Source of the DNA: an uncultured Planctomycetota bacterium
GTDB taxonomy: Bacteria; Planctomycetota; Planctomycetia; Gemmatales; Gemmataceae
Direction: 5' to 3'
Length of the DNA stretch: 64,000 nt
Assembly: GCA_963849325.1 (NCBI GenBank)
Contig: CAWKHF010000008.1
Coordinates: 1 to 64,000, forward strand
Shown: positions 1-52,771 of the stretch, one piece after another
Numbering within the stretch: the first letter of the stretch is position 1
How the letters are laid out: each line of letters starts with the position of its first letter
Translations under genes and position numbers: made by a program
The notes under the pieces: model-generated
Told to the model about the DNA's origin: nothing
Database searches by the model: none
The model's input: only the letters and a program-made list of their open reading frames with translations

Positions 1-941
1 GTCCGGGTGCTTGACGATGAACTGCGTGGCGAAATGGTGACGCAGGTTGTAGACGATCAAACCGTCCGGCAGCTCGATCCCCTTCTCCTTCAGCCTGATC
101 CTGAGCTTGTACATCGCCATCGTGATGACATCGCCGCTGTACGGCTGGCCGGACCTCCCGCGGAAGATCGGGCCTTCGGGCCATTCCTTGTTCAGCCGCT
201 CGACCATCTCAATCATCTCGGGCGTAAGCCAGACACGCTTGACGTATTTCCGCTTCGACACGCGGTCCTCGTAGAGGTCTTCCACGTCCCAGAGCTTGAG
301 CTTCGGGCGGTAGTGGCGGGCCTCGACGTGGCGAATGGTGGACGGCCTGGCCCCGGTCCAGGCGACCGCCCGAAGGAAGTCGGCGAACCGGTCGTTCACG
401 TTGTCCGTGACGATCTTGAAAATCTCCGGCGTCCAGACGGCGTTGCCGCCCCGGGAGCCGCCCTCGGGCAGGTCGAGCTTGCCACGGAGCGGATTGGCTA
501 CGATCAGCCGTGCCTTGCCCGATGCCGCCCAGTTGAGGCAGGCCAGGATCATCGCCTTGTACAGGCGGCGGGTGCCGTCGCTTTTCACGTCGGGCTTCGA
601 CTTGATCCAGTCCTCGATGTGCCGTGGCCGCATGTCGCGCACCTTGATGTCCTTGCCCAAATAGGCGAGGAACTCGTTGATGCGGGCCTTGCAGAGCCGG
701 AAGCGCTCGGCGTCGTGGATCGTCTCGATGTGCAGGAGCCACGCCTCAGCGACCTCCCCGAAGGTGGGGCTGCTGTTTGTGACTGGCTCGGCCATGTCGT
801 GTTTGGCGAGCAGGAAGCGGAACTGCTTCTCGGCTTCGTCCTTGTCGGTGCCGAGGCGGTGGAGCTTGCCTTCAATGGTGACGGTGTAGTTGTTGAGGGA
901 GGGAGGGGGTCCAGTTGAGCTTTCGCGAGTCGTCCCGTCAT
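1..941 (-). CDS. Tyrosine recombinase/phage-type integrase, 3' end runs off the window; 5' end has small indels (ATG 941 is out of frame, in-frame ATG at 1011)
   Basis: Manual minus-strand translation (not in the ORF track because no stop lies in the window): ...NNYTVTIEGKLHRLGTDKDEAEKQF...ANPLRGKL...AVAWTGARPSTI...GPIFR...LIVYNLRHHFATQF. This contains catalytic Arg box I (TGAR) and a YxLRH box II. Confidence 0.88.
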
Positions 942-1105
942 GGCTGTTGTCCTCGGGCCAGAAGGGGACATCTTTTCGAGTTCTTTTCGCCAACCGACTT
1001 TTTTCTGACATCCTTTCGCCGGTAGTGTATTACAACGAAAAGAAATGCCGGGACAAGTGCATGAAATTGGCTTATTTTGCTGGGTTTTCGGAGATGCGCC
1101 AGAAA

Positions 1106-1159
1106 TCAGGATGGTTTTATGCCCATGAAGCCGATGCCCACCAGTCCGATCCGAATCAT
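1106..1159 (-). pseudogene. 5' stub of a Gfo/Idh/MocA-type NAD-binding oxidoreductase (MIRIGLVGIGFMG, then IKPS*), truncated at the putative att site
   Basis: RBS AGAAGGA just upstream of ATG 1159; Rossmann GxGxxG beta1 start typical of Gfo/Idh/MocA; stops after 17 codons. Confidence 0.7.
1113..1132. mobile_element. Putative attachment core of the integrative element extending leftward
   Basis: Minus strand GGCTTCAT-GGGC-ATAAAACC is an imperfect inverted repeat (6/8) exactly where oxidoreductase similarity stops. TC(T/C)TTTCG direct repeats at ~971, 982 and 1011 lie between it and int. Confidence 0.55.
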
Positions 1160-1393
1160 TGGCGAGTCCTTCTCTCGCTATTTCCCGGACCCATCGGATA
1201 ATGTTCGGGACAGCATACGCGGCGGCCCCGGGGGCGGAAAGAAGCCCTTGGCTGGCCGCCCGCGGCGCCTACGCTCCTTGCATCGTCCCTAAACTCGCAT
1301 TACCTTGATAACCGAGATGCCCCGCTTCGATGCGCGGAGACGCCGCCGGGCAAGCGGGGCGAGGGGCTAATGCGAGCAGCCGGAGGAAGCATC

Positions 1394-1771
1394 ATGACCC
1401 AGCGGACTTTGTGGGACTACGCCGAGGACAGATGCGGAGAGCAACGAGACGGAGAGGAGGGAGAAGATCTCGCCGAGGAGGAAGACAAGGATCGTTCGCG
1501 GCGTCGGACCTTCAAGCAACTACGAGCCAGCGGCCATTGGCTGACGTTGCTACGGGTCGCGCGCTCCATGCCGCAGCCTTTCACCCTCAACGACCTCTCG
1601 GTGGCGGTGTGGAAAGTCTGCCCGGAGTTCTTCGGGATGAAGGGCTATCCCTACCCGGACAATCACCGCGTCCATTACATTCTTTACGGCAGCCGCGGAC
1701 TCATCGCCAAGGGCATCCTCCACAGGGTCCGTCAAGGTCTCTTCCGCATCCCCGAGGAGACGGCGACGTAG
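1394..1771 (+). CDS. Hypothetical protein, possible winged-helix domain
   Basis: ORF with PFTLNDLSVAVWK..FGMKGY.YPDNHRV...GLIAKG..RVRQGLFRI pattern; acidic N-terminus. Confidence 0.6.
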   Translation: MTQRTLWDYAEDRCGEQRDGEEGEDLAEEEDKDRSRRRTFKQLRASGHWLTLLRVARSMPQPFTLNDLSVAVWKVCPEFFGMKGYPYPDNHRVHYILYGSRGLIAKGILHRVRQGLFRIPEETAT

Positions 1772-1829
1772 GACCTCTCCATCCCGTTCTCCTCGTTTCG
1801 CCGCGCGCTGCGGAGAGCGCCGCGCGTCC

Positions 1830-2999
1830 TCAATCCCGACAAGGTTTCCCCTCCGCGTAGAGCGGCAGGCGCTGGCGAGCGGCCGACGTGCTCGCGGAGT
1901 CGCCGTATCCGAACTCGAGCGCTTTTTGTTGCCAGCGGACGGCGTCGGCGAAACCGCCGCACTCGGCGTAGGCGGCGGCCAGCGCCTCCAGCGCGCGGGC
2001 ATCGCGCCAGGCGCTGAGCCGGCAAGCTCGTGTCGCCCATTGCATCGCGGCTGCGCCATCGCGCCATTTCCTCTCGACGGCCGTGGCCCGGACCCAGGCG
2101 AGATGCGTGTACGCGGCCCGATCGTTGGGGGCGAGGCGGATGGCCGTCTCGAAGTCCTGGATGGCCGATTCGTATTCCCTCCGGCCCAGCAGCACCAGGC
2201 CGCGGTTGACGTGGCTGCGGGGAAACGTGGGATCGAGACGGATGGCCTCGTGGTAGTCGCACAAGGCCCGGCTGGTATCGCCCTTTTGGGCCGAGGCGGC
2301 GGCCCGGCCATGGTAGAGGGCCGGATCGTGCGGGTCGAGGTAGATGGCCTCGTCGTAATCGCGGATGGCCTGGTCGTAGTCGCCTCGCGCTGCGTGGGCG
2401 AACGCACGGCTGCGCAGGGCCACGGCGCTCTTGGGACAGAGGCGGACGGCCGCGTCGAAGTCGGCGATGGCCCGCTCGTAGTCCTTTTTTTCCAGGTAGA
2501 GGACGCCGCGGTTGCTGAACAACCCCGCGTTGTCCGGCCGCAGTCGGATGGCCTCGGTGTAATCGGCGACGGCAGCGTCCCATTGCCGCTTTTCGTGCCA
2601 GGCCTCGGCACGCAGCACGTGGGCGAACGGATCGCCGGGGTTGGCGCGGATCTTCTCGGTGAAGTACGCGACGGCGTCGTCCAGCAAAACCGCGTCTTGC
2701 CGGGCAAACCAGGCATCCTGCCCCCGATGCCGCACCTCGATCCATTCGCCGCGCTCGGCGAGGACCGGCACAACCATGTCCTCGAAGGGACCGATGCGGA
2801 CGTCGCGCCACGGATCGTCGGTGTACCAGACGCGGACACCCGACTGCCGGGGCATGACCTGCTTGCCGATCCACGATCCCTCGGCGGCGGAAAGTCGAGC
2901 GGCAAGCCCGAAGGATGCGACGACGGCCAACCCACACAACAGCAGGGCCGACAGCCGGCGACATGCGCCGCTCCGGTTGGAAGCATGCGCGTCCGACAT
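1830..2999 (-). CDS. Secreted tetratricopeptide repeat protein
   Basis: Signal-like hydrophobic N-terminus; multiple TPRs (AIADFDAAVRL, AIRDYDEAIYLDP); planctomycete-type RDG..A..WAT.AC C-terminal cap. Confidence 0.9.
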   Translation of the reverse strand: MSDAHASNRSGACRRLSALLLCGLAVVASFGLAARLSAAEGSWIGKQVMPRQSGVRVWYTDDPWRDVRIGPFEDMVVPVLAERGEWIEVRHRGQDAWFARQDAVLLDDAVAYFTEKIRANPGDPFAHVLRAEAWHEKRQWDAAVADYTEAIRLRPDNAGLFSNRGVLYLEKKDYERAIADFDAAVRLCPKSAVALRSRAFAHAARGDYDQAIRDYDEAIYLDPHDPALYHGRAAASAQKGDTSRALCDYHEAIRLDPTFPRSHVNRGLVLLGRREYESAIQDFETAIRLAPNDRAAYTHLAWVRATAVERKWRDGAAAMQWATRACRLSAWRDARALEALAAAYAECGGFADAVRWQQKALEFGYGDSASTSAARQRLPLYAEGKPCRD

Positions 3000-3040
3000 T
3001 TCTCCCTCGGATCAAGGGCACCGACGCGCGGACGCCGCGC

Positions 3041-3248
3041 TCAGTTGTTGGCGCAGTGGGCCGCGACGGCGGCCCGTTCGTCCTGGATGAGCGTGCGGAT
3101 TCTCCAAGCGCGTTTGCCGCAAGAGCAGACCGAGCAGGCTGTCCTCGCCGACGACGGCGATGAGCATGCCGAGAACGCCGGCCACCCATTTCGCGTGCGC
3201 CAGGTTGAAGAAACAGGATTCGTTCGATGACGTGTTCGTCCTTGCCAT
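3041..3248 (-). CDS. Small hypothetical protein (one probable frameshift near 3100)
   Basis: GGAGG RBS before ATG 3248; MARTNT...LLRQTRLE continues as IRTLIQDERAA in the adjacent frame. Confidence 0.45.
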
Positions 3249-3322
3249 TGGGGAACCTCCATGTTCCTAACGGGTCGGCCCATGATAGCCTCGACCCGGT
3301 AAAGCAGGCAAGAGCAGTCCCG

Positions 3323-3721
3323 TCAATTCGCCGGCTTCGTCGCCCCAGCGGGAGCAGAGGTTTTCGGCGGAGGCGAGGCGGCGGCTGGCTTGCGACTGAC
3401 GTTGGCGGCGCTGCCGGGGCCGCCCCAGAGGGCGACGGGGACGGTGATGGGCAGCGTCAACGTGTCCGCGATGGCCGACAGCGGCACGTCCAGACCGATC
3501 AAACCGACGCCGACGACTGTGCCGACATCGTGCATCAGGTCCGTTTGGGCGGAGATGGGATTGTCCTCGATCCATTGTTCGGTGGATTTCACGTCGCGCT
3601 GAACGCCGCCGTAGATTCGGCTGTTCTGCCAGCCGCGGTCGCCGAAGTTGGCGATGGTGCCGCAGCCGGCCAGGACGACGGCGGCCAGCGCCGGTGCAAC
3701 GGCGAGCGATGCTCTCCTCAT
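3323..3721 (-). CDS. YceK/YidQ family lipoprotein
   Basis: Lipobox LAGC-GT, IYGGV and DVPLSAIADTLTLP motifs. Confidence 0.85.
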   Translation of the reverse strand: MRRASLAVAPALAAVVLAGCGTIANFGDRGWQNSRIYGGVQRDVKSTEQWIEDNPISAQTDLMHDVGTVVGVGLIGLDVPLSAIADTLTLPITVPVALWGGPGSAANVSRKPAAASPPPKTSAPAGATKPAN

Positions 3722-3841
3722 CTCGGTCCTCCCCGGACAAAGGGGCGGCATCTTACTGCCGGGCCGGAGGAGGTCAAGGGCAACTGCCGCGCGATCGATG
3801 AAATGGATGCCTGCGTGGCTTCGAGGAGTGGTCGGTATGGC

Positions 3842-3937
3842 CCCCTCTCCCCCGCTTCGGGGGAGAGGGGTTGGGGGTGAGGGGGCGGCTCCTCCCCCTC
3901 ACCCCCAACCCCTCTCCCCCGAAGCGGGGGAGAGGGG
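3842..3937. repeat. REP/REPIN-type palindrome (CCCCTCTCCCCCGCTTCGGGGGAGAGGGG type)
   Basis: ~44-bp arms in inverted orientation, each arm itself a hairpin. Confidence 0.85.
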
Positions 3938-4042
3938 AGAAAGACGCCCGTACTACCCGAAACGATGCGCGCGACCGATGAAACATTGCCGGCCCCTTTC
4001 GGGTAGAATATCCCAGTACCGGAGACATCGGGGTCTGTCATC

Positions 4043-5653
4043 ATGTGGCTGCGAAACGTATTCTTCCTCGGCTTGGTCGGCGGCGGCGTCTTTGCCCTCG
4101 GCGTCGGCCTGATGCCGCCGCGCGAGCCGAAGCCGCTGACGCGCTTCGACGCCGACGCCTACCGGCGCCGGAGTTTCGCGCCGCCGTCGCTCGCGTCGAT
4201 GCTTCCTTCAACCATCAATGGACCGAGCAGGGCTTGCCTCCGGCCGCCGTCGCGCCGGACCTGACCATCGCCCGCCGTCTGGCGCTGGGCCTGATGGGCA
4301 CCATCCCGTCGCTGGAAGAGGTCCGCCAGTTTGAATATCTGCCGACCGACGAGCGCCTGGCCTGGTGGCTCGACCACGTTCTGCAAGATCGCCGCTTCGC
4401 CGACCACTTCGCGGAGCGCTTCGCTCGTGCCTTCGTCGGCACCGAGGACGGCCAGCTCCATCCTCTACCGCCGCCGCCGCTTCGTCGCCTGGCTGGCCGA
4501 CCAGCTGGCCCAGAACCGGCCCTACGACCAACTCGTCCGCGAACTGATCGCCTCCGAGGGTCTGTGGACCAACAAGCCCGCCACCAACTTCCTCAGCGTC
4601 ACCGTCCAGACCGACAGCAAGAACCAGCCCGACCCGGTGCGGCTGGCCGGCCGCGTCACGCGGGCTTTTCTGGGCTTGCGCCTCGACTGTGCTCAGTGCC
4701 ACAATCACCCCTACGCCGAGTGGAAGCAGTCGGATTTCCAGGGCTTTGTCCGCTTTCTTCGGGCAGACGCACCTCGGTTTCACCGGCATCTACGACGGGC
4801 CGGGCGAGTACGAGGTGAAGGACCGTAAGACCCAGGCGACGCACACGGTCGAGCCGCGCGTGCCTTTCGCTCCGGAGTTGCTCCCCGAGAGCGGCAGCCG
4901 GCGCTGGCGGTTGGCCTGCTGGGTCACGGACCCGAAAAATCCGTATTTCGCCCGTGCCGCCGTCAACCGCGTCTGGGCGCTGATGCTGGGCCGGCCGCTG
5001 GTCGAGCCGGTCGATAACCTGGAGTCCGACACGGCCGCTCCGCCGGCGCTGCGATCTGCTGGCCGACGACTTCGTCTCCCATCGACTTCGACCTGCGCCG
5101 CCTTGTTCGTGTCATCGCCTTCGGCCGCGTTTTCCAGCTCGACAGCGCCGCCGACCACGAGATCGGCGAGACCGAGGAGCAGGCCTGGGCCGTCTTTCCC
5201 CTGACGCGGCTGCGGCCCGAGCAGGTCGTCGGCAGCGTCTTGCAGGCGTCGTCCGTTTCCACCGTCGATTCGCAGTCGCACGTGCTGGCCCGCTTCGCTC
5301 GCCTGGGTCAGCGGAACGAGTTCGTCACGCGCTACGGCGACAGCGGCGAGGACGAGTTCGACGGCCGCGGCGGCACCATCCCGCAGCGGCTGCTGATGAT
5401 GAACGGCAAGCTGCTGCACGAGAAGATCGAGGACAGCCCGTTCAACGCCTCGACGCGCATCGCCTGGATGGCTCCCGACGACGCCCGCGCGGTCGAGGCG
5501 GCTTACCTGGCCGTGCTGACGCGCCGGCCGACGCCCGAGGAAGCCGAGTACTTCGAGCAAGCCCTCGCCGACCCGAGCCTGAAGCGAGCGCAGCGGATGG
5601 AAGACCTGTACTGGGCCCTCGTCAACTCCACGGAGTTCTCATGGAACTACTGA
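4043..5653 (+). CDS. DUF1549/DUF1553 (PSD1/PSCyt) planctomycete protein, several frameshifts
   Basis: Pieces across frames: RRLALGLMGTIPS, GLRLDCAQCHNHP, NPYFARAAVNRVW, EDLYWALVNSTEFSWNY. Confidence 0.9.
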
Positions 5654-6924
5654 GTTCGCACGCCCCGCTGCCTCGACGGGGGTTCCTGCGCCTGGCCGGG
5701 CTGGCCGGCGTATCCTGGCTGACGCCCATCGGCCATCTGCTGGCCCGCGCCGCCGAGGCGCCGGCCGAACGGCACCTCCCGGCCCAGTCGATCATTCTGC
5801 TCTGGCTGCAAGGCGGACCCAGCCAGCTGGAGACGTTCGACCCTCATCCCGGCACCGCCATCGCCGGCGGGACCGGCGCCCTCGACACGGCCGTCAAGGG
5901 CGTGCAGCTGGCCCCCGGCCTGGAGCGCACGGCCGAGGAGATGCACTCCGTCGCCCTGGTCCGCTCGATGGTCAGCAAGGAGGGCGATCACGAACGCGGC
6001 ACCTACACGATGAAGACCGGCTTTCGGCCTGACCCGACGGTGATCCATCCTTCCATCGGGGCCGTCTGCTGTCACGAGCTGCCCGCCGCCGGCACCGACA
6101 TCCCGCGTCACGTCAGCATCCTGCCCGGCCGATGGCCGGCTCGCGGCGGCTATCTCGGCGAGAGCTACGACGCCTTCAAAACCGGCGATCCGGCCGGCGA
6201 GGTGCCCGACACGGTTTCGCGCCTGACGCCGCAGCGCGACGAGCAGCGCCTGCACCATCTCGACGTGGTCGAACGCGCCTTCGCGCGCGGCCGGGAGCGG
6301 CGCGTCGAGGCAACGCGGCACCGCGAGACGCTGACGCGGGCGCGGAAGATGATGAGTTCGGAGCAGCTGCGGGCCTTCGACGTGTTGCGCGAGCCGTTGG
6401 CCCTGCGCCGCGCTTACGGCGAGACGCCGTTCGGCCGCGGCTGCCTGGCGGCGCGGCGGCTGATCGAGGTCGGCGTCCGCTGCGTCGAGGTGACGCTGGT
6501 CGGCTGGGACACGCACGCCAACAATCACGCTCTCCACCGCGATCTGCTCGCCGTCCTCGATCCCGCCTTCAGCGCCCTGCTGCGCGACCTGCGCGAGCGC
6601 GGCCTGCTGGAGCGAACGGTCGTGCTGTGCGCCGGCGAGTTCGGGCGGACGCCGGCGATCAATCCGCTGGGCGGCCGCGATCACTGGCCCACCGGCTTCA
6701 GCGTCGCCCTGGCCGGCGGCGGCATTCGCGGCGGCCGGGTCGTCGGCGAAACCGACCCCGACGGCAAGAAAGGACCGACCCATCCCGTGACCGTCGGCGA
6801 TCTGCATGCGACCGTCCTGACCGCCGTGGGCATCGATCCCAAGAAGGTCAACCAGACGCCGATTGGCCGCACGGTGCGCTTCAGCGAGGGCCAGCCGATC
6901 GCGGCACTGCTGGGAAATCGATAA
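5641..6924 (+). CDS. DUF1501 domain protein
   Basis: Tat-like RRGFL; LQGGPSQLETFDP, GWDTH, GEFGRTP, GRDHW motifs. Confidence 0.93.
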   Translation: MELLSSHAPLPRRGFLRLAGLAGVSWLTPIGHLLARAAEAPAERHLPAQSIILLWLQGGPSQLETFDPHPGTAIAGGTGALDTAVKGVQLAPGLERTAEEMHSVALVRSMVSKEGDHERGTYTMKTGFRPDPTVIHPSIGAVCCHELPAAGTDIPRHVSILPGRWPARGGYLGESYDAFKTGDPAGEVPDTVSRLTPQRDEQRLHHLDVVERAFARGRERRVEATRHRETLTRARKMMSSEQLRAFDVLREPLALRRAYGETPFGRGCLAARRLIEVGVRCVEVTLVGWDTHANNHALHRDLLAVLDPAFSALLRDLRERGLLERTVVLCAGEFGRTPAINPLGGRDHWPTGFSVALAGGGIRGGRVVGETDPDGKKGPTHPVTVGDLHATVLTAVGIDPKKVNQTPIGRTVRFSEGQPIAALLGNR

Positions 6925-8567: not shown

Positions 8568-8971
8568 ACACACGAAAGGATCTGAATAACTTGGCAAAGA
8601 GTAAGGTAGGAAACACCTCCGTAGAAATCGAAATCCTGGAGGCCCTGGAAGACTTCACGGATGCTTTGGAGAAAGGGGAGGTGTTGGAGCGGTTCACTTG
8701 CCGGCAGATCAAACTCCAACTTGAGCCGACGCATTACAATTCGGAACTCGTCAAGAAAACCCGGAAGGTCTTGGGAGTTAGCCAGACGCTGTTCGCCCGA
8801 TTTCTTGGCGTGTCTCCGAAGACGGTACGTGCCTGGGAACAGGGCATTAACATTCCTCATCCCATGGCCTGCCGGTTCATGGATGAGATTCGTCAAGCTC
8901 CGAGCCACTGGGCTGAACGGCTGCGGGAACTCACCGTCATGAAGAATGACTGCGCGGGGCTCTCGCTGTGA
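8564..8971 (+). CDS. higA: HigA-type HTH-XRE antitoxin
   Basis: RKVLGVSQTLFARFLGVSPKTVRAWEQG HTH; ATGA overlap with the toxin. Confidence 0.85.
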   Translation: MNTRKDLNNLAKSKVGNTSVEIEILEALEDFTDALEKGEVLERFTCRQIKLQLEPTHYNSELVKKTRKVLGVSQTLFARFLGVSPKTVRAWEQGINIPHPMACRFMDEIRQAPSHWAERLRELTVMKNDCAGLSL

Positions 8972-9132: not shown

Positions 9133-9876
9133 ATGTACAAGCTGACGACGATGGTATTGTTTCTCGCGGGGCTGATCGGCTTGGCCGCAGCAGATGCTCC
9201 GGCGCCCGTGGTGCAAACGGAAGCCGGCAAAAAGGCCCTGGCGCGCATCCGCCAGCTCGGCGGCCTAGCCCTGGAGCTGGCCCAGAACGATCCGCACCTG
9301 GAGGTGTCCTATCTGCAGACCGACGGCAAATGGAGCGATGAGCACCTCGCCCTGCTCAAGGATCTCAAAGGTCTCGTTCGTCTCAATCTACGCGGCCAGC
9401 CGGTGACGGACGCTCAGCTCGTCTACCTCAAGCCGCTGACCGATCTGACGGAGCTGCACCTGGAGAAGACGAAGATTACCGACAAGGGGCTGGCGAACCT
9501 CAAGGGACTGGTCAACCTCGAATACCTGAACCTGTACGGCACCAACGTCAGCGACGCCGGGCTGGCCAACCTCGAAGGGATGAAGAAGCTCAAACATCTT
9601 TACGTGTGGCAGACGAAAGTGACGGAGAGCGGTGCGGCCAAGCTGAAGAAGTCGGTCCCGGCCGCGGACGTCAACCGCGGTTTCGAGGAACCGCCCGAAC
9701 CGAAGAAGGACGAGAAGAAGCCCGAACCGAAGAAGGGTGAGAAGAAAGACAAGAAGGTCGAGACCAAGAAGGACGCCAAGAAACCCGAACCGAAGAAGGA
9801 GGACAAGAAGCCGGAGCCGAAAAAGGACGAGAAGAAGAAACCGGAGCCGAAAAAAGAGGACAAGAAGAAGCCCTAA
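9133..9876 (+). CDS. Secreted leucine-rich-repeat protein with Lys/Glu/Pro-rich repeat tail
   Basis: Signal peptide; LxxLxLxxTxxTDxGL repeats; (KPEPKKDEK)n tail at ~9690-9873. Confidence 0.85.
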   Translation: MYKLTTMVLFLAGLIGLAAADAPAPVVQTEAGKKALARIRQLGGLALELAQNDPHLEVSYLQTDGKWSDEHLALLKDLKGLVRLNLRGQPVTDAQLVYLKPLTDLTELHLEKTKITDKGLANLKGLVNLEYLNLYGTNVSDAGLANLEGMKKLKHLYVWQTKVTESGAAKLKKSVPAADVNRGFEEPPEPKKDEKKPEPKKGEKKDKKVETKKDAKKPEPKKEDKKPEPKKDEKKKPEPKKEDKKKP

Positions 9877-9912
9877 CCCTACGAAGAAGGGCGAACGTCA
9901 TCGGATTCCTCG

Positions 9913-46870: not shown

Positions 46871-47021
46871 CCCCCTCGCCCGAGTTTGATCCGCTCCAAC
46901 CGTCCGAATGCTTGATGGAACGACTCCTTGCACGCCGACAGCGGCCCTTTTACTATAAAGACAGTTCGTAATCCTCCCGATGCCGACAGGCATCTCCGCC
47001 CGCCCACGCTGCGAGACGTTC

Positions 47022-49283
47022 ATGAATTCATCGAAGACATGCGGCTGCCACGGCCGGCACCGGCCGTGGGCGCTCCACACGGCCTGCACTCTTCTCCTGC
47101 TCGTCGCACGGCCGGCCGTCCCGGTACGGGCGGCGCCGGTCAGCTTCCGCAACGAGGTCATGGCCGTGCTGTCGCGCGGCGGCTGCAACCAGGGGGCGTG
47201 CCACGGCAATCAGAACGGTAAGAACGGCTTCAAACTGTCGCTGCGCGGCCAGGATGCCGATTTCGACCTCGACGCCCTAACGCGCGACACGCTCGGTCGC
47301 CGCACCGATCGCTTGCACCCCGCCGATAGTCTGGTCCTCAGCAAGGCGACGAGCAGCGTGCCGCACGAGGGCGGTCCGCGCTTCGACCGCGCTTCGCTGG
47401 AATATCGACTGCTCTTCCGCTGGATCGCCGAGGGCGCGCGGCCTGACTCGCCGGACGCCCCCGTCCTGCGCCGCCTCGACGTGACGCCGCGCGAACAGGT
47501 GCTGGTCGAGCCGGCCGATAGCGTATCCTTGAACGTGCGGGCTGTCTTCTCCGACGGCAGCGTCCGCGACGTGACGCGCCTGGCCGTCTTCGAGACGTCG
47601 AACCTGATCGTCCGCGTCGATGCCGAGGGCATGGCGCGGCGGCAGGACCGCGGCGAAACGACGATCCTCGTGCGCTACCTCGACCGACAGGCGGCGGTGC
47701 AGCTGGCGTTCGTGCCGGCGCGGCCCGGCTTCGCCTGGCCCGAAACGCCCGAGTCCAACTACATCGATCACCACGTCTTAGCCAAACTGCGGACGCTGCG
47801 CATGGCCCCCTCGGCCCTCGCTCCCGATGCCGTGTTCCTGCGCCGCGTCTATCTCGACACGCTCGGCATCCTACCGACGCCGGAGGAAACGCGGACGTTC
47901 CTGGCCGACACGCATCCCGACAAGCGGGCGCGGCGGATCGACGCCCTGCTGCAACGGCCGGAGTTCGCCGACTTCTGGTCCCTCAAATGGTCGGATTTAC
48001 TGCACTGCGAGGAGAAGACGCTCGACCGCAAGGGCGTGCAGGTGTTCCACGATTGGATTCGCCGGAGCATCGCCGACGGCAAGCCGCTCAACGAGTTCGC
48101 CCGCGAATTGGTCGCCGGCCGCGGCAGCACCTACAGTCAGCCGGCGGCCAACTGGTATCGCGCCCTGCGCGATCCGCAGGCTCGCGCCGAGTCCTGCGCC
48201 CAGGTGTTTCTCGGCATTCGCATGCAGTGCGCCCGCTGCCACAATCACCCGTTCGACCGCTGGACGCAGACCGACTATCACAGTTTGTCGGCCTTCTTCG
48301 GCCGCGTGCAATACCGCATCCTCGAAAACAACCGCCGCGACCGCCTCGACAAGCACGAGTTCGACGGCGAACAGGTGGTGTGGATGGACCGCGCCGGCGA
48401 GATCAAGCATCCGCGCAGCGGCGAGGTACTGCGGCCGCTGTTCCTGGGTGCCGAGACACCGGCGTTCGCCCCGGAGTCCGATCGCTTGCTGGCCCTGGCC
48501 GATTGGATTGCCAGCCCGGACAATCCGTTCTTCGCCCGCGCCCAGGCCAACCGTGTTTGGTATCACCTGCTCGGCCGCGGCCTCGTCGAGCCGAACGACG
48601 ACTTCCGCGCCTCCAATCCTCCGGTCAACGGCCCGCTACTCGACGCCCTGGCCCGCGACCTCGCCGCGCACCGCTTCGACCTGCGTTCCCTGGTGCGAAC
48701 GATCCTGAACTCGCGCACCTATCAGCTATCCGCTGTGCCCAACGAGAGCAACGGCGACGATGAGGCCAACTTCGCCCGCGCTCTGGTGCGGCCGTTGCAG
48801 GCGGAACAACTGCTCGATGCGCTGGCGCAGGTGACGGGCGTGGCGCCGGATTTCCCCGGTTATCCGGCGGGCACGCGCGCCGGCCAGCTGCCGGGCGTCG
48901 GCGGCAATCGCGGTCGGCGGCGGCAGGCCAGCGACGGCGAGAAGTTCCTCACCTCGTTCGGCAAACCGATCCGCTTGCTCAGCTGTGAGTGCGAACGCTC
49001 CGAGGACACGACGCTGGCGCGGGCGTTCCAGCTCATCACCGGGCCGCTCGTCAACCAGATACTCAGCGACGCGGACAACCGCATTGGCCGTCTGCTCCAA
49101 GCCGGCAAGACGGACGCGGAGATCATCGAGGAATGTTACCTGGCGGCGCTGTGCCGGCCGCCGTCGCCACAAGAGAGACAGCGGGCGCGAGAGATGATCG
49201 AGCGGTCGAAGGATCGGCGGGCGGCGCTGGAAGACCTGGTTTGGGGATTGGTCAACGCCAAGGAGTTTCTACTGCGGCGGTGA
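47022..49283 (+). CDS. DUF1549/DUF1553 protein with Ig-like domain
   Basis: GCNQGACHG..GFKLSLRG, FLRRVYLD, MQCARCHNHPFDRW, CECER, WGLVNAKEF. Confidence 0.93.
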   Translation: MNSSKTCGCHGRHRPWALHTACTLLLLVARPAVPVRAAPVSFRNEVMAVLSRGGCNQGACHGNQNGKNGFKLSLRGQDADFDLDALTRDTLGRRTDRLHPADSLVLSKATSSVPHEGGPRFDRASLEYRLLFRWIAEGARPDSPDAPVLRRLDVTPREQVLVEPADSVSLNVRAVFSDGSVRDVTRLAVFETSNLIVRVDAEGMARRQDRGETTILVRYLDRQAAVQLAFVPARPGFAWPETPESNYIDHHVLAKLRTLRMAPSALAPDAVFLRRVYLDTLGILPTPEETRTFLADTHPDKRARRIDALLQRPEFADFWSLKWSDLLHCEEKTLDRKGVQVFHDWIRRSIADGKPLNEFARELVAGRGSTYSQPAANWYRALRDPQARAESCAQVFLGIRMQCARCHNHPFDRWTQTDYHSLSAFFGRVQYRILENNRRDRLDKHEFDGEQVVWMDRAGEIKHPRSGEVLRPLFLGAETPAFAPESDRLLALADWIASPDNPFFARAQANRVWYHLLGRGLVEPNDDFRASNPPVNGPLLDALARDLAAHRFDLRSLVRTILNSRTYQLSAVPNESNGDDEANFARALVRPLQAEQLLDALAQVTGVAPDFPGYPAGTRAGQLPGVGGNRGRRRQASDGEKFLTSFGKPIRLLSCECERSEDTTLARAFQLITGPLVNQILSDADNRIGRLLQAGKTDAEIIEECYLAALCRPPSPQERQRAREMIERSKDRRAALEDLVWGLVNAKEFLLRR

Positions 49284-51556: not shown

Positions 51557-51571
51557 GGAGCTACTGCCTTG

Positions 51572-52771
51572 ATGGACTTCGGCGACCTGTTGAAGAAGGC
51601 TTTCAGCCGCAGGACCGACAATCCCGTGCAGGCGATTGTCGAGGAGCTGGGCCGTCGTCTCCAGGAGATGGAGTCCGCCTCGGTGCGCATCGGCTTCATC
51701 GGTGAAGCGGGCGTCGGCAAGTCCAGCCTCATCAACGCCATCCTTGGCCGCGACGTCGCCCCCGTCGGCGCCACCACCATCACCCACAATCCCGAGGGCG
51801 AGGCGTATCCGTACGACGGCGTCACCCTCGTCGATCTGCCCGGCACCGGCGTACCGGAACGACCGTTCAAAAGCTATGTGGACGATCTGAAATTGCTGGA
51901 ACCGGGCCGATATGACGCCTTCGTGCTGGTCAGTTCGCACCGGCTGCGCGAGAATGAGGTGACGCTGTTCGACGTGCTGCACCAGAAGGGCGGCAAGCCG
52001 TTCTTCGTCGTCCGCAGCCACTTCGACGCGGCGGTGCGGGCGGAGGGCGACGAGGCCACGGCACGGCGGAAGATCGAAGAGGCGTTTCGCAAACACCTGG
52101 GCCAGCCCAACCTCCGCGTTTACATGGTGTCGTCGCCTAACCCAACGCAGTACGACCTGCCGGCATTGCTGCACGACCTGGTTTCGTCGCTGTCGGAACC
52201 GAAACAGGTGCGTCTTCTAGCGGCGATACCCGCCTACACCCGCGAGTTGGTCCAGAAGAAACGCGAGGCGGCCGAAGCGATCGTCTTCGTCTACGCCGGC
52301 CTGGCCGCGGCCAACGGCTTGAATCCCATACCGGGTACGGACATTTTGCTCGACCTGGGCCTGATGCAGAAGATGACGCGGCAAGTCATTGGCGAATTCG
52401 GCCTGCAGCGCGAGCAGCTGGAAAAATTGTCGATGGCCCGCGTGGGTCCGGTGAGTCTCGACTTCATGCTCGATGCCGCCCGCACCGTGCTGGCCCGACT
52501 GGTCGAGGGCAGCATCACCGCCTTCCTCAAGGAAGCCGGCAACGAAGCCGCCAAACAGGTGACGCACAAGGCCGTCGGCACGCAGGTGAAAAAGAAGACC
52601 GGACAGACGGTCGCCCGCTACAGCAGCAAGTACGTCCCCTTCATCGGCCAGCTCGTCTCCGCGGGCATCGGCTTCGGCACCGCCTATTCCTACGGACGAT
52701 TCCTGCTCAACGACTGCGAGGAAGCGCTGGGCCGGATCGTGCAGCGGATCGGCGAACGGACGGTCGGTTAG
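51572..52771 (+). CDS. IRG/IIGP-like (p47 immunity-related) GTPase
   Basis: G1 GEAGVGKSS, G3 DLPG.G, YDAFVLVSS.R..ENE, FFVVRSHFD (G4), YDLP.L, KKRE, PIPG..D..L..FGL helical C-terminus. Confidence 0.8.
   Translation: MDFGDLLKKAFSRRTDNPVQAIVEELGRRLQEMESASVRIGFIGEAGVGKSSLINAILGRDVAPVGATTITHNPEGEAYPYDGVTLVDLPGTGVPERPFKSYVDDLKLLEPGRYDAFVLVSSHRLRENEVTLFDVLHQKGGKPFFVVRSHFDAAVRAEGDEATARRKIEEAFRKHLGQPNLRVYMVSSPNPTQYDLPALLHDLVSSLSEPKQVRLLAAIPAYTRELVQKKREAAEAIVFVYAGLAAANGLNPIPGTDILLDLGLMQKMTRQVIGEFGLQREQLEKLSMARVGPVSLDFMLDAARTVLARLVEGSITAFLKEAGNEAAKQVTHKAVGTQVKKKTGQTVARYSSKYVPFIGQLVSAGIGFGTAYSYGRFLLNDCEEALGRIVQRIGERTVG

Follow-up and report, generated by a model that had tools for sequence, protein, structure and literature searches.

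Two systems in which integrative elements enter the 5' coding end of a conserved gene are well studied. The islands at dusA share an integrase family that uses one site in the 5' end of this gene in >200 bacteria, with rarer non-cognate sites, and the element gives the gene a new 5' end (PMC4482086, Farrugia et al. 2015); experiments in a later paper demonstrated that a promoter and an altered N-terminus come with this new 5' end (PMC8409611, Durand et al. 2021). Integrative and conjugative elements (ICEs) of the SXT/R391 group occupy the 5' end of prfC and also use secondary sites, and different members of the group can line up in tandem arrays (PMC5812530 and PMC8409611). The present analysis concerns one end of a 64,000-nucleotide stretch from an uncultured Planctomycetota bacterium (assembly GCA_963849325.1, contig CAWKHF010000008.1, positions 1 to 64,000 of the forward strand; hereafter, the window). 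With a probability of roughly 0.8, positions 1-1128 are the integrase gene (int)-proximal end of a site-specific integrative element, with its host junction at 1123-1128, in a Planctomycetota clade that targets the start of a Gfo/Idh/MocA oxidoreductase gene.

An earlier note on this DNA had described a gene start with a ribosome-binding site (RBS) that soon meets a stop codon, with a tyrosine integrase gene below it, and had proposed that the att site of an integrative element is formed by the GxGxxG codons in the 5' end of a Gfo/Idh/MocA gene. All of these features are present on the minus strand, and the proposal is supported by the recurrence of the stub at 20 of 23 junctions, by the unrelated flanks, by the match of the stub to an orthologue N-terminus, and by conjugation genes on the int side in relatives. 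The stub starts at ATG 1159, follows an RBS (GAAGGA, 1172-1167), reads MIRIGLVGIGFMGIKPS, and closes with a TGA stop at 1108-1106; the integrase open reading frame (ORF) lies downstream of it on the same strand and leaves the window at the left edge.

A single genome-collection scan with the integrase alignment returned 33 loci, none of which was the source genome. L001 to L022 were close, with integrases 43-90% identical; L023 to L027 were distant (24-29%), and L028 to L033 were weak clostridial matches. The close loci all came from Planctomycetota records (Pirellulales, Gemmataceae, and others) except for one contig labelled Alcaligenaceae; L017 belongs to a cultured Gemmata isolate (HG799467.1). 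In 19 of these 22 loci, the same stub was found 120-330 nucleotides upstream of int, whereas the five distant loci contained none. The stub consensus was M-V/I/L-R/N-I/V-G-I/L-V/A-G-I/V-G-F-M/I-G, always preceded by a purine-rich RBS-like run, and the stop came after 16-27 codons in 17 of the 19 loci, the exceptions being L001 (42 codons) and L009 (81 codons). The DNA similarity between the window and L001 ends where the host flank begins (Table 1), and only 1-860 and a 41-nucleotide block, 1101-1141, align with L002. ORFs upstream of the stubs were not shared between loci, apart from the syntenic pair L005/L022, and ORFs downstream of int were shared. Comparison of the 600-nucleotide flanks upstream of the stubs with blastn-short gave no match at E<=1e-3, so the P arms cannot be aligned as a family beyond short motifs.

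The gene from which the stub derives was identified through a relative. None of five stubs of 20-25 amino acids matched a Pfam family, stubs of this size being too short. The natural 81-codon stub ORF of L009, used as a homologue query, retrieved one protein, P0102, with which its first 18 residues are identical. P0102 contains the domains PF01408 and PF22725, as do its homologues among the matches listed, and it belongs to a tight orthologous group of ~344-348 amino acids whose members are 58-82% identical to it and are named Gfo/Idh/MocA oxidoreductase or predicted dehydrogenase in their sources; no NCBIfam equivalog was reached at its cut-off by this group. Among the best 120 orthologues of P0102, 114 start with M[VIL][RN]VGI[VA]GIGFMGMIHYLAYQKV. 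As judged from these alignments, the stub corresponds to the genuine N-terminus of a Gfo/Idh/MocA orthologue that is conserved, ~345 amino acids long, and equipped with a Rossmann GxGxxG motif. P0102 itself may come from a close relative of L009 in which the gene is uninterrupted, or it could represent the far junction in the L009 genome. Scans near the junction found no tRNA gene in window positions 1-6000 and no Rfam match at E<=1 in positions 1-3000, which ruled out a tRNA or noncoding RNA as the insertion target.

Anchored comparison of the 23 junctions placed the crossover within this motif. TCATGG was the sole block common to all of them, and a 17-nucleotide block, 1132-1116, was identical in the window, L001, and L002. 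The final Gly of the GxGxxG motif is Gly13. At residue 14, each of the 114 aligned intact genes has M, W, or L; the stubs of the window, L001, and L002 have Ile there, and those of L013, L014, L017, L019, and L020 have Arg. Since residue 14 of these eight stubs is unlike that of intact genes, element DNA begins at codon 14 at the latest, with the host/element boundary at codon 13/14. We infer that the exact crossover takes place at TCATGG, and the position of this block at 1128-1123 agrees with the location of the core in the GxGxxG codons that the earlier note had suggested. The att site thus lies in codons 11-13, within the 5' coding region of a conserved gene, at 20 of the 23 junctions. At the three stub-less junctions, those of L005 and L022 (about 9816-9830) and L006 (about 9870-9885), the sequences are not Gfo-like and share only TCATGG(GC); they are likely secondary attachment sites. 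L005 and L007 represent two elements on one contig, and the L003 stub (8799-8864) contains a 12-nucleotide tandem duplication of the GIVGI codons (MIRIGIVGIGIVGIGFMG...) at the attachment site.

On the host side of the junction, the flank of the stub is divergent from a plus-strand ORF at 1370-1771, whose 133-amino-acid product matched no Pfam or NCBIfam family. The window stub appears to be the native host start, because no arm-type motif was found upstream of it. As the earlier note had it, the host promoter is directed into int, and a scan of 850-1450 scored no terminator between them; the same interval scored no sigma-70-like promoter.

Between the stub and int, every family member has the same arm layout. 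An inverted 8- to 10-nucleotide motif lies 75-90 nucleotides from the core; after it come a TAcAAT-like element and then two or three direct copies at a spacing of 11-12 nucleotides, with 40-60 nucleotides left before the start codon. Paired direct arm sites had a like position (+95 to +143 from the core) and spacing in 16 of the 23 junctions, and the tandem-pair pattern matched 16 of 23 int-proximal regions; elsewhere in the 452 kb it matched just three times, both strands counted. Like the recurrence of the stub, this goes beyond chance. The motif itself varies by subfamily: the window shares CGAAAAGA with L001 and L008, eight loci have GCGCAAAGAA, and CACAAAGAA occurs in others. The TC(T/C)TTTCG repeats that had been proposed as arm-type sites are thus present and conserved, their sequence co-varies between subfamilies, and a fourth, inverted copy was found. 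We regard the repeats as conserved predicted protein-binding sites, which probably bind the integrase N-terminal domain and would also serve as operators of an int promoter; the spacer at 1019..1035 is likely to be that promoter, by its sequence. The frame of the 20 stubs (window 1120-1106 and the loci) closes a median of 5 codons past Gly13, far earlier than G+C-rich DNA predicts; the near arm may be selected for an early end of translation, and the stub copies are not independent of one another.

The integrase matches the PHROG_1 integrase family (E 9e-25) and has 101 homologues at E<=1e-5, with a length of 352-355 amino acids, the best of which is 93% identical and comes from a Pirellulales metagenome-assembled genome. 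Catalytic-domain profiles place it in the tyrosine recombinase superfamily, through PHROG_1 for the window copy and through PF00589, which is precomputed for most of the 101 homologues. Box I TGARPS and LRH are invariant in the homologue alignment, and both are present in the window integrase; the GH...Y segment is kept in the homologues and falls past the window edge in the window copy. The residue roles are those that we assume for these motifs. About 50 C-terminal codons, including that of the catalytic Tyr, are absent from the window copy because the window ends there. At 50% clustering the clade is compact, with 22 representatives at E<=1e-30 versus 953 at <=1e-10. No specific NCBIfam family was found for the integrase (P0001), the best match being XerC with 25.5 bits against a cut-off of 335 and the others being weak XerC/XerA matches.

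The 5' end of the integrase gene differs from that of its relatives. Homologue N-termini read M(P)AGRxPKLNWTPSL.QYT.TI.GK, and the long frame of the window aligns with them only from PSLNNYTV, since the two insertions listed in Table 1 split the native N-terminus across three frames (MTGRLAK / KLNWTPSL / NNYTV). The start at ATG 1011 given by the ORF finder was rejected as an artefact: this ATG lies inside an arm-type site, the family's start is ATG 941, and the stretch after ATG 1011 is taken as noncoding because a 1-nucleotide indel relative to L001 changes the frame there. With the native start at ATG 941, the direct repeats sit upstream of the integrase coding sequence and not within it. 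The indels could be real decay or an assembly error. A PSCyt2/PSD1 (DUF1549/DUF1553) gene on the plus strand, 4480-5640, matches an intact paralogue at 46980-49283 in frames 1, 2, and 1 and is without its N-terminal third; it is a pseudogene or a sign of assembly indel errors. Many window genes of 600-900 codons are unbroken despite these frame changes.

Table 1. Features of the junction region in the window, in order of position
Feature	Position	Strand	Remarks
Tyrosine integrase gene	1..941	-	Native ATG of the family (941-939) up to the window edge; PHROG_1, homologues, and alignment
Two frameshifting insertions	895..928	-	+1 T at 928 and +4 in a C/T run at ~895-909, relative to L001 (DNA alignment with L001 and L002)
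Element-derived int-proximal arm (P' arm)	942..1122	-	Crossover to integrase start; 91% identical to L001
Two direct arm-type sites, CGAAAAGA	971..989	-	978-971 and 989-982; 11 nucleotides from start to start
Third direct arm-type site, CGAAAGGA	1011..1018	-	+113 from the core
Spacer with -10-like TAATAC	1019..1035	-	Between inverted and direct copies; TAcAAT in most relatives; position conserved
Inverted arm-type copy, CGAAAGAA-type	1036..1044	+	9 nucleotides, 100% complementary to 981-989; likewise placed inverted copy in relatives
Truncated gene start	1106..1159	-	13 host codons of the Gfo/Idh/MocA oxidoreductase, then 4 element-encoded codons and stop
TCATGG, proposed crossover region	1123..1128	-	Within the Phe11-Met12-Gly13 codons; anchored comparison of 23 junctions
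Host flank with RBS and presumed native promoter of the interrupted gene	1160..1369	-	Window/L001 similarity (91% identity) ends at 1161

The genes behind int in the relatives indicated the kind of element. A small convergent HTH_17 "excisionase family" ORF followed int, in clusters covering 19 of the 22 loci; all five of the ORFs tested were positive by Pfam, and TIGR01764 was barely over its cut-off in L001. A VirD4/TraG coupling protein (T4CP) gene was found within 10 kb in 8 of the 22 loci, seven in one cluster and L021 by Pfam, a ParB-like gene lay behind int in six loci, and L021 also contained a MobF/TrwC relaxase-helicase gene. The excisionase-type, T4CP, ParB-like, and MobF relaxase genes point to an ICE or an integrative and mobilisable element (IME), and a tblastn search with the L001 integrase found no match in plasmid records and none in 50,697 phage records. 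By predicted gene content, the family is conjugative or mobilisable and not a phage. A preprint on planctomycete plasmids describes chromosomal MobF relaxases, often with a T4CP, without complete sets of mating-pair-formation (MPF) genes, and presents such chromosomal relaxases and T4CPs without a described context and conjugation among planctomycetes as unreported (10.1101/2024.01.22.576637). Two VirD4/TraG-like ORFs per element were seen in L007 (12235-13644 and 14658-16550) and in L022 (11367-12587 and 13913-15760), and in both loci one of the two was shorter and without part of the C-terminal domain.

According to the proposed mechanism, the integrase would recombine inside the Phe-Met-Gly codons (TCATGG) of GxGxxG, at the very start of the ~345-amino-acid oxidoreductase gene. 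Integration would leave the host promoter, the RBS, and the first 13 codons as a soon-terminated stub pointing into int, and the stub-int interval would be a lambda-like arm, with one inverted and two or three direct arm-type sites around a -10-like element, whose sites would bind the integrase N-terminal domain and regulate int. At the far end, a second TTCATGGGC core in like orientation would be followed by the remaining ~330 oxidoreductase codons in frame, and the integrated element would rebuild the oxidoreductase gene with a new start from the far arm. Beyond the junction and the integrase, the rest of the window element lies to the left of position 1. Hints of far arms came from 6 of the 20 stub junctions (L001, L004, L010, L013, L016, and L021), in which a same-strand arm-type 10-mer was located at -110 to -129 from the core, upstream of the stub RBS and ATG. 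The background of this 10-mer is ~1 per 19 kb per strand, which gives ~0.02 loci expected versus the 6 observed, and the upstream motif was unlike that of the resident element in five of the six. With a far arm, a core, and a near arm in this order, the six junctions resemble attP, as would be left by a tandem insertion or by the remnant of an earlier element. In L001, a full tandem pair, GCG(T/C)AAAGAATGG, of a subfamily unlike the resident element's is located at 9752-9776 upstream of the stub, and all nine ORFs upstream of the stub are without a Pfam family, possibly representing a second element in tandem.

The family works like the prfC and dusA elements and differs from them in phylum, target gene, and, as far as compared, integrase lineage. 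Like the dusA islands, it combines a tyrosine integrase clade at one 5'-end site of one conserved gene in many genomes with variable cargo and with low-frequency non-cognate sites, here 3 of 23 junctions. Unlike the dusA islands, which occur in Proteobacteria and lie in the beta-1 strand of dusA, it is found in Planctomycetota, in the Rossmann motif of a Gfo/Idh/MocA gene; the restoration of the gene is here a prediction, and the candidate recombination directionality factor is the HTH_17 excisionase-type gene beside int, not a PrtN-like rdfN. With regard to kinship with dusA-associated integrases or IntSXT, only the weak NCBIfam XerC/XerA matches were obtained. As with SXT/R391, a putatively conjugative element lies in the 5' coding end of a housekeeping-type gene; the backbone is unrelated, with a MobF relaxase and a VirD4-type T4CP and no MPF genes seen in the 10 kb behind int, and the far end and tandem arrays are suggested here by the attP-like junctions only.

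In lambda attP, the core is flanked by arm-type sites that are bound by the N-terminal domain of the integrase. The present arms have, similarly, direct and inverted repeats 95-145 nucleotides from the core on the int side, to which the attP-like junctions add one at 110-129 nucleotides on the other side; unlike in lambda, the predicted arm sites bracket a -10-like element, suggesting a double role as operators. Accretion and decay of ICESt1/ICESt3-type islands were reportedly described by Pavlovic et al. in 2004, and the end remnants of one element beside a resident at one att site would be similar, as far as short motifs can suggest. Literature searches for a prior description of an att site at a Gfo/Idh/MocA gene start found none.

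Several observations weigh against the reading of the locus as the end of a mobile element of this family. No second stub-like start followed by a long ORF was found within 10 kb of int in any locus, so that the far junction (second core and gene body) was seen neither in the window nor in any locus and flanking direct repeats (attL/attR) are a prediction; from the same result, the elements must be larger than ~11 kb. When the 22 loci and the window were searched on either strand with a regular expression for another G.GFMG start, nothing came up apart from the stubs themselves and, in the window, a single unrelated dehydrogenase-like motif. Older elements may have left the six attP-like junctions behind as remnants, in which case these would not show what an intact far end looks like, and host-like genes are present within 1 kb upstream in L004 and L021. 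The 8-4-8 imperfect palindrome at 1113-1132, which the earlier note had cited as evidence for the core, did not hold up: only six of eight positions pair, such palindromes are at chance level in 900-1200 (1 observed versus 1.13 +/- 1.04 in 500 shuffles), and the repeat search did not report it. The window integrase fragment matched no Pfam family at E<=0.001, PF00589 included, and the full-length L001 integrase scored 26.7 bits against the PF00589 cut-off of 27.1. No MPF genes were among the scanned ORFs in the 10 kb behind int of L001, L004, L010, L016, and L021, whose elements extend further, and the window shows only the integrase of its own element, with no cargo or conjugation gene of its own visible. 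Finally, the two integrase frameshifts mean that the window copy may be dead.

Gene-interrupting switches are known from active lysogeny at comK and from the sigK skin element, and the present element might act in the same manner, silencing the oxidoreductase upon integration, with a far end that brings no start, so that the gene would work only after excision. The stub is indeed severed from the gene body and stops soon after Gly13 (median of 5 codons, 20 stubs), the far end is unseen, and the host promoter, being directed into int, could link excision to the regulation of the gene. Against such a switch, however, six junctions have an arm site, an RBS, an ATG, and 13 codons ahead of a core, as would be expected if far arms carry a start, and both well-studied 5'-end-targeting systems restore their target genes (PMC8409611, PMC4482086). 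We therefore consider it unlikely that the element is a pure on/off switch; of the two consequences that the earlier note had named, a replacement start is favoured, on the indirect evidence of these parts in the six attP-like junctions, and it is somewhat more probable than not that the oxidoreductase remains expressed from an RBS, an ATG, and 13 initial codons newly provided by the far arm. A further variant of the replacement-start model seems distinctly unlikely at present: a two-way promoter swap in which the native, presumably substrate-regulated promoter would drive int, and hence excision and transfer, and the far arm would place the oxidoreductase under element control.

The idea that the locus is a dead remnant, with a decaying integrase and junction and with excision lost, is judged rather improbable. 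The near-invariant KLNWT N-terminus is lost through the +1 and +4 insertions, which lie after the native ATG and ahead of the integrase body, and the PSCyt2/PSD1 neighbour is frameshifted too; however, the remaining integrase frame stays open over 300 codons with a third-position G+C content of 0.86, the in-frame upstream ATG 1011 could yield a variant protein, and the indels lie in a C/T run and are possible assembly errors, the element interior being unseen. Continued mobility of the window copy is doubtful because the integrase 5' end is frameshifted. It is very improbable that the locus represents a prophage, or else a recombinase switch of a domesticated or invertible kind, in place of a conjugative element. 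The integrase matches a phage-integrase PHROG and is alone visible in the window; yet the phage records gave no tblastn match, T4CP, relaxase, and ParB-like genes lie behind int in relatives, and no phage family was found among the ORFs tested. Phase-variation inversion was ruled out, as no inverted copy of the core was found within 10 kb on either strand. The likelihood that the stub arose as an ORF by chance, beside an integrase that simply happens to be intergenic, is negligible: the failure of Pfam to score any of five 20- to 25-residue stubs would fit, and this idea is already refuted by the recurrence of the stub, each time with an RBS-like purine run, at 20 of 23 junctions and by the 18 residues identical to a real Gfo/Idh/MocA start. 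The int-proximal end of an integrative element at the oxidoreductase start is therefore retained as the best explanation.

Read in this manner, the locus defines the att site, arm architecture, and gene module of a putative conjugative or mobilisable element family in Planctomycetota, and it would be the third independent case, after prfC and dusA, of elements that choose the first codons of a conserved gene. The target in this case is a predicted nucleotide-binding GxGxxG motif, which is conserved for protein-structural reasons. Annotators can recognise the 16- to 27-codon stubs and the element boundaries that they mark, and the integrase/attP pair is a candidate integration vector for planctomycetes. 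If the promoter swap were true, conjugation in Planctomycetota, where it is undemonstrated, would be coupled to a host metabolic signal, and ~350 bp of attP together with int would be ready for use in site-specific integration in a phylum whose engineering is difficult.

The Alcaligenaceae-labelled contig (L016, CAYUHJ010000132.1) has an int-proximal arm nearly identical to that of L015 (Planctomycetia), with MerC-like and P-type ATPase genes behind int; it could reflect mis-binning or cross-phylum transfer. The window itself has a G+C content of 65% and a gene content typical of Planctomycetota, including DUF1501, PSCyt2/PSD1, Ser/Thr kinases, and WD40 and HEAT repeat proteins. At 51569-52771 on the plus strand, it encodes a 400-amino-acid protein that matches the interferon-inducible GTPase family (IIGP, PF05049; E 4.8e-30), a dynamin-like GTPase type that is unusual in bacteria.

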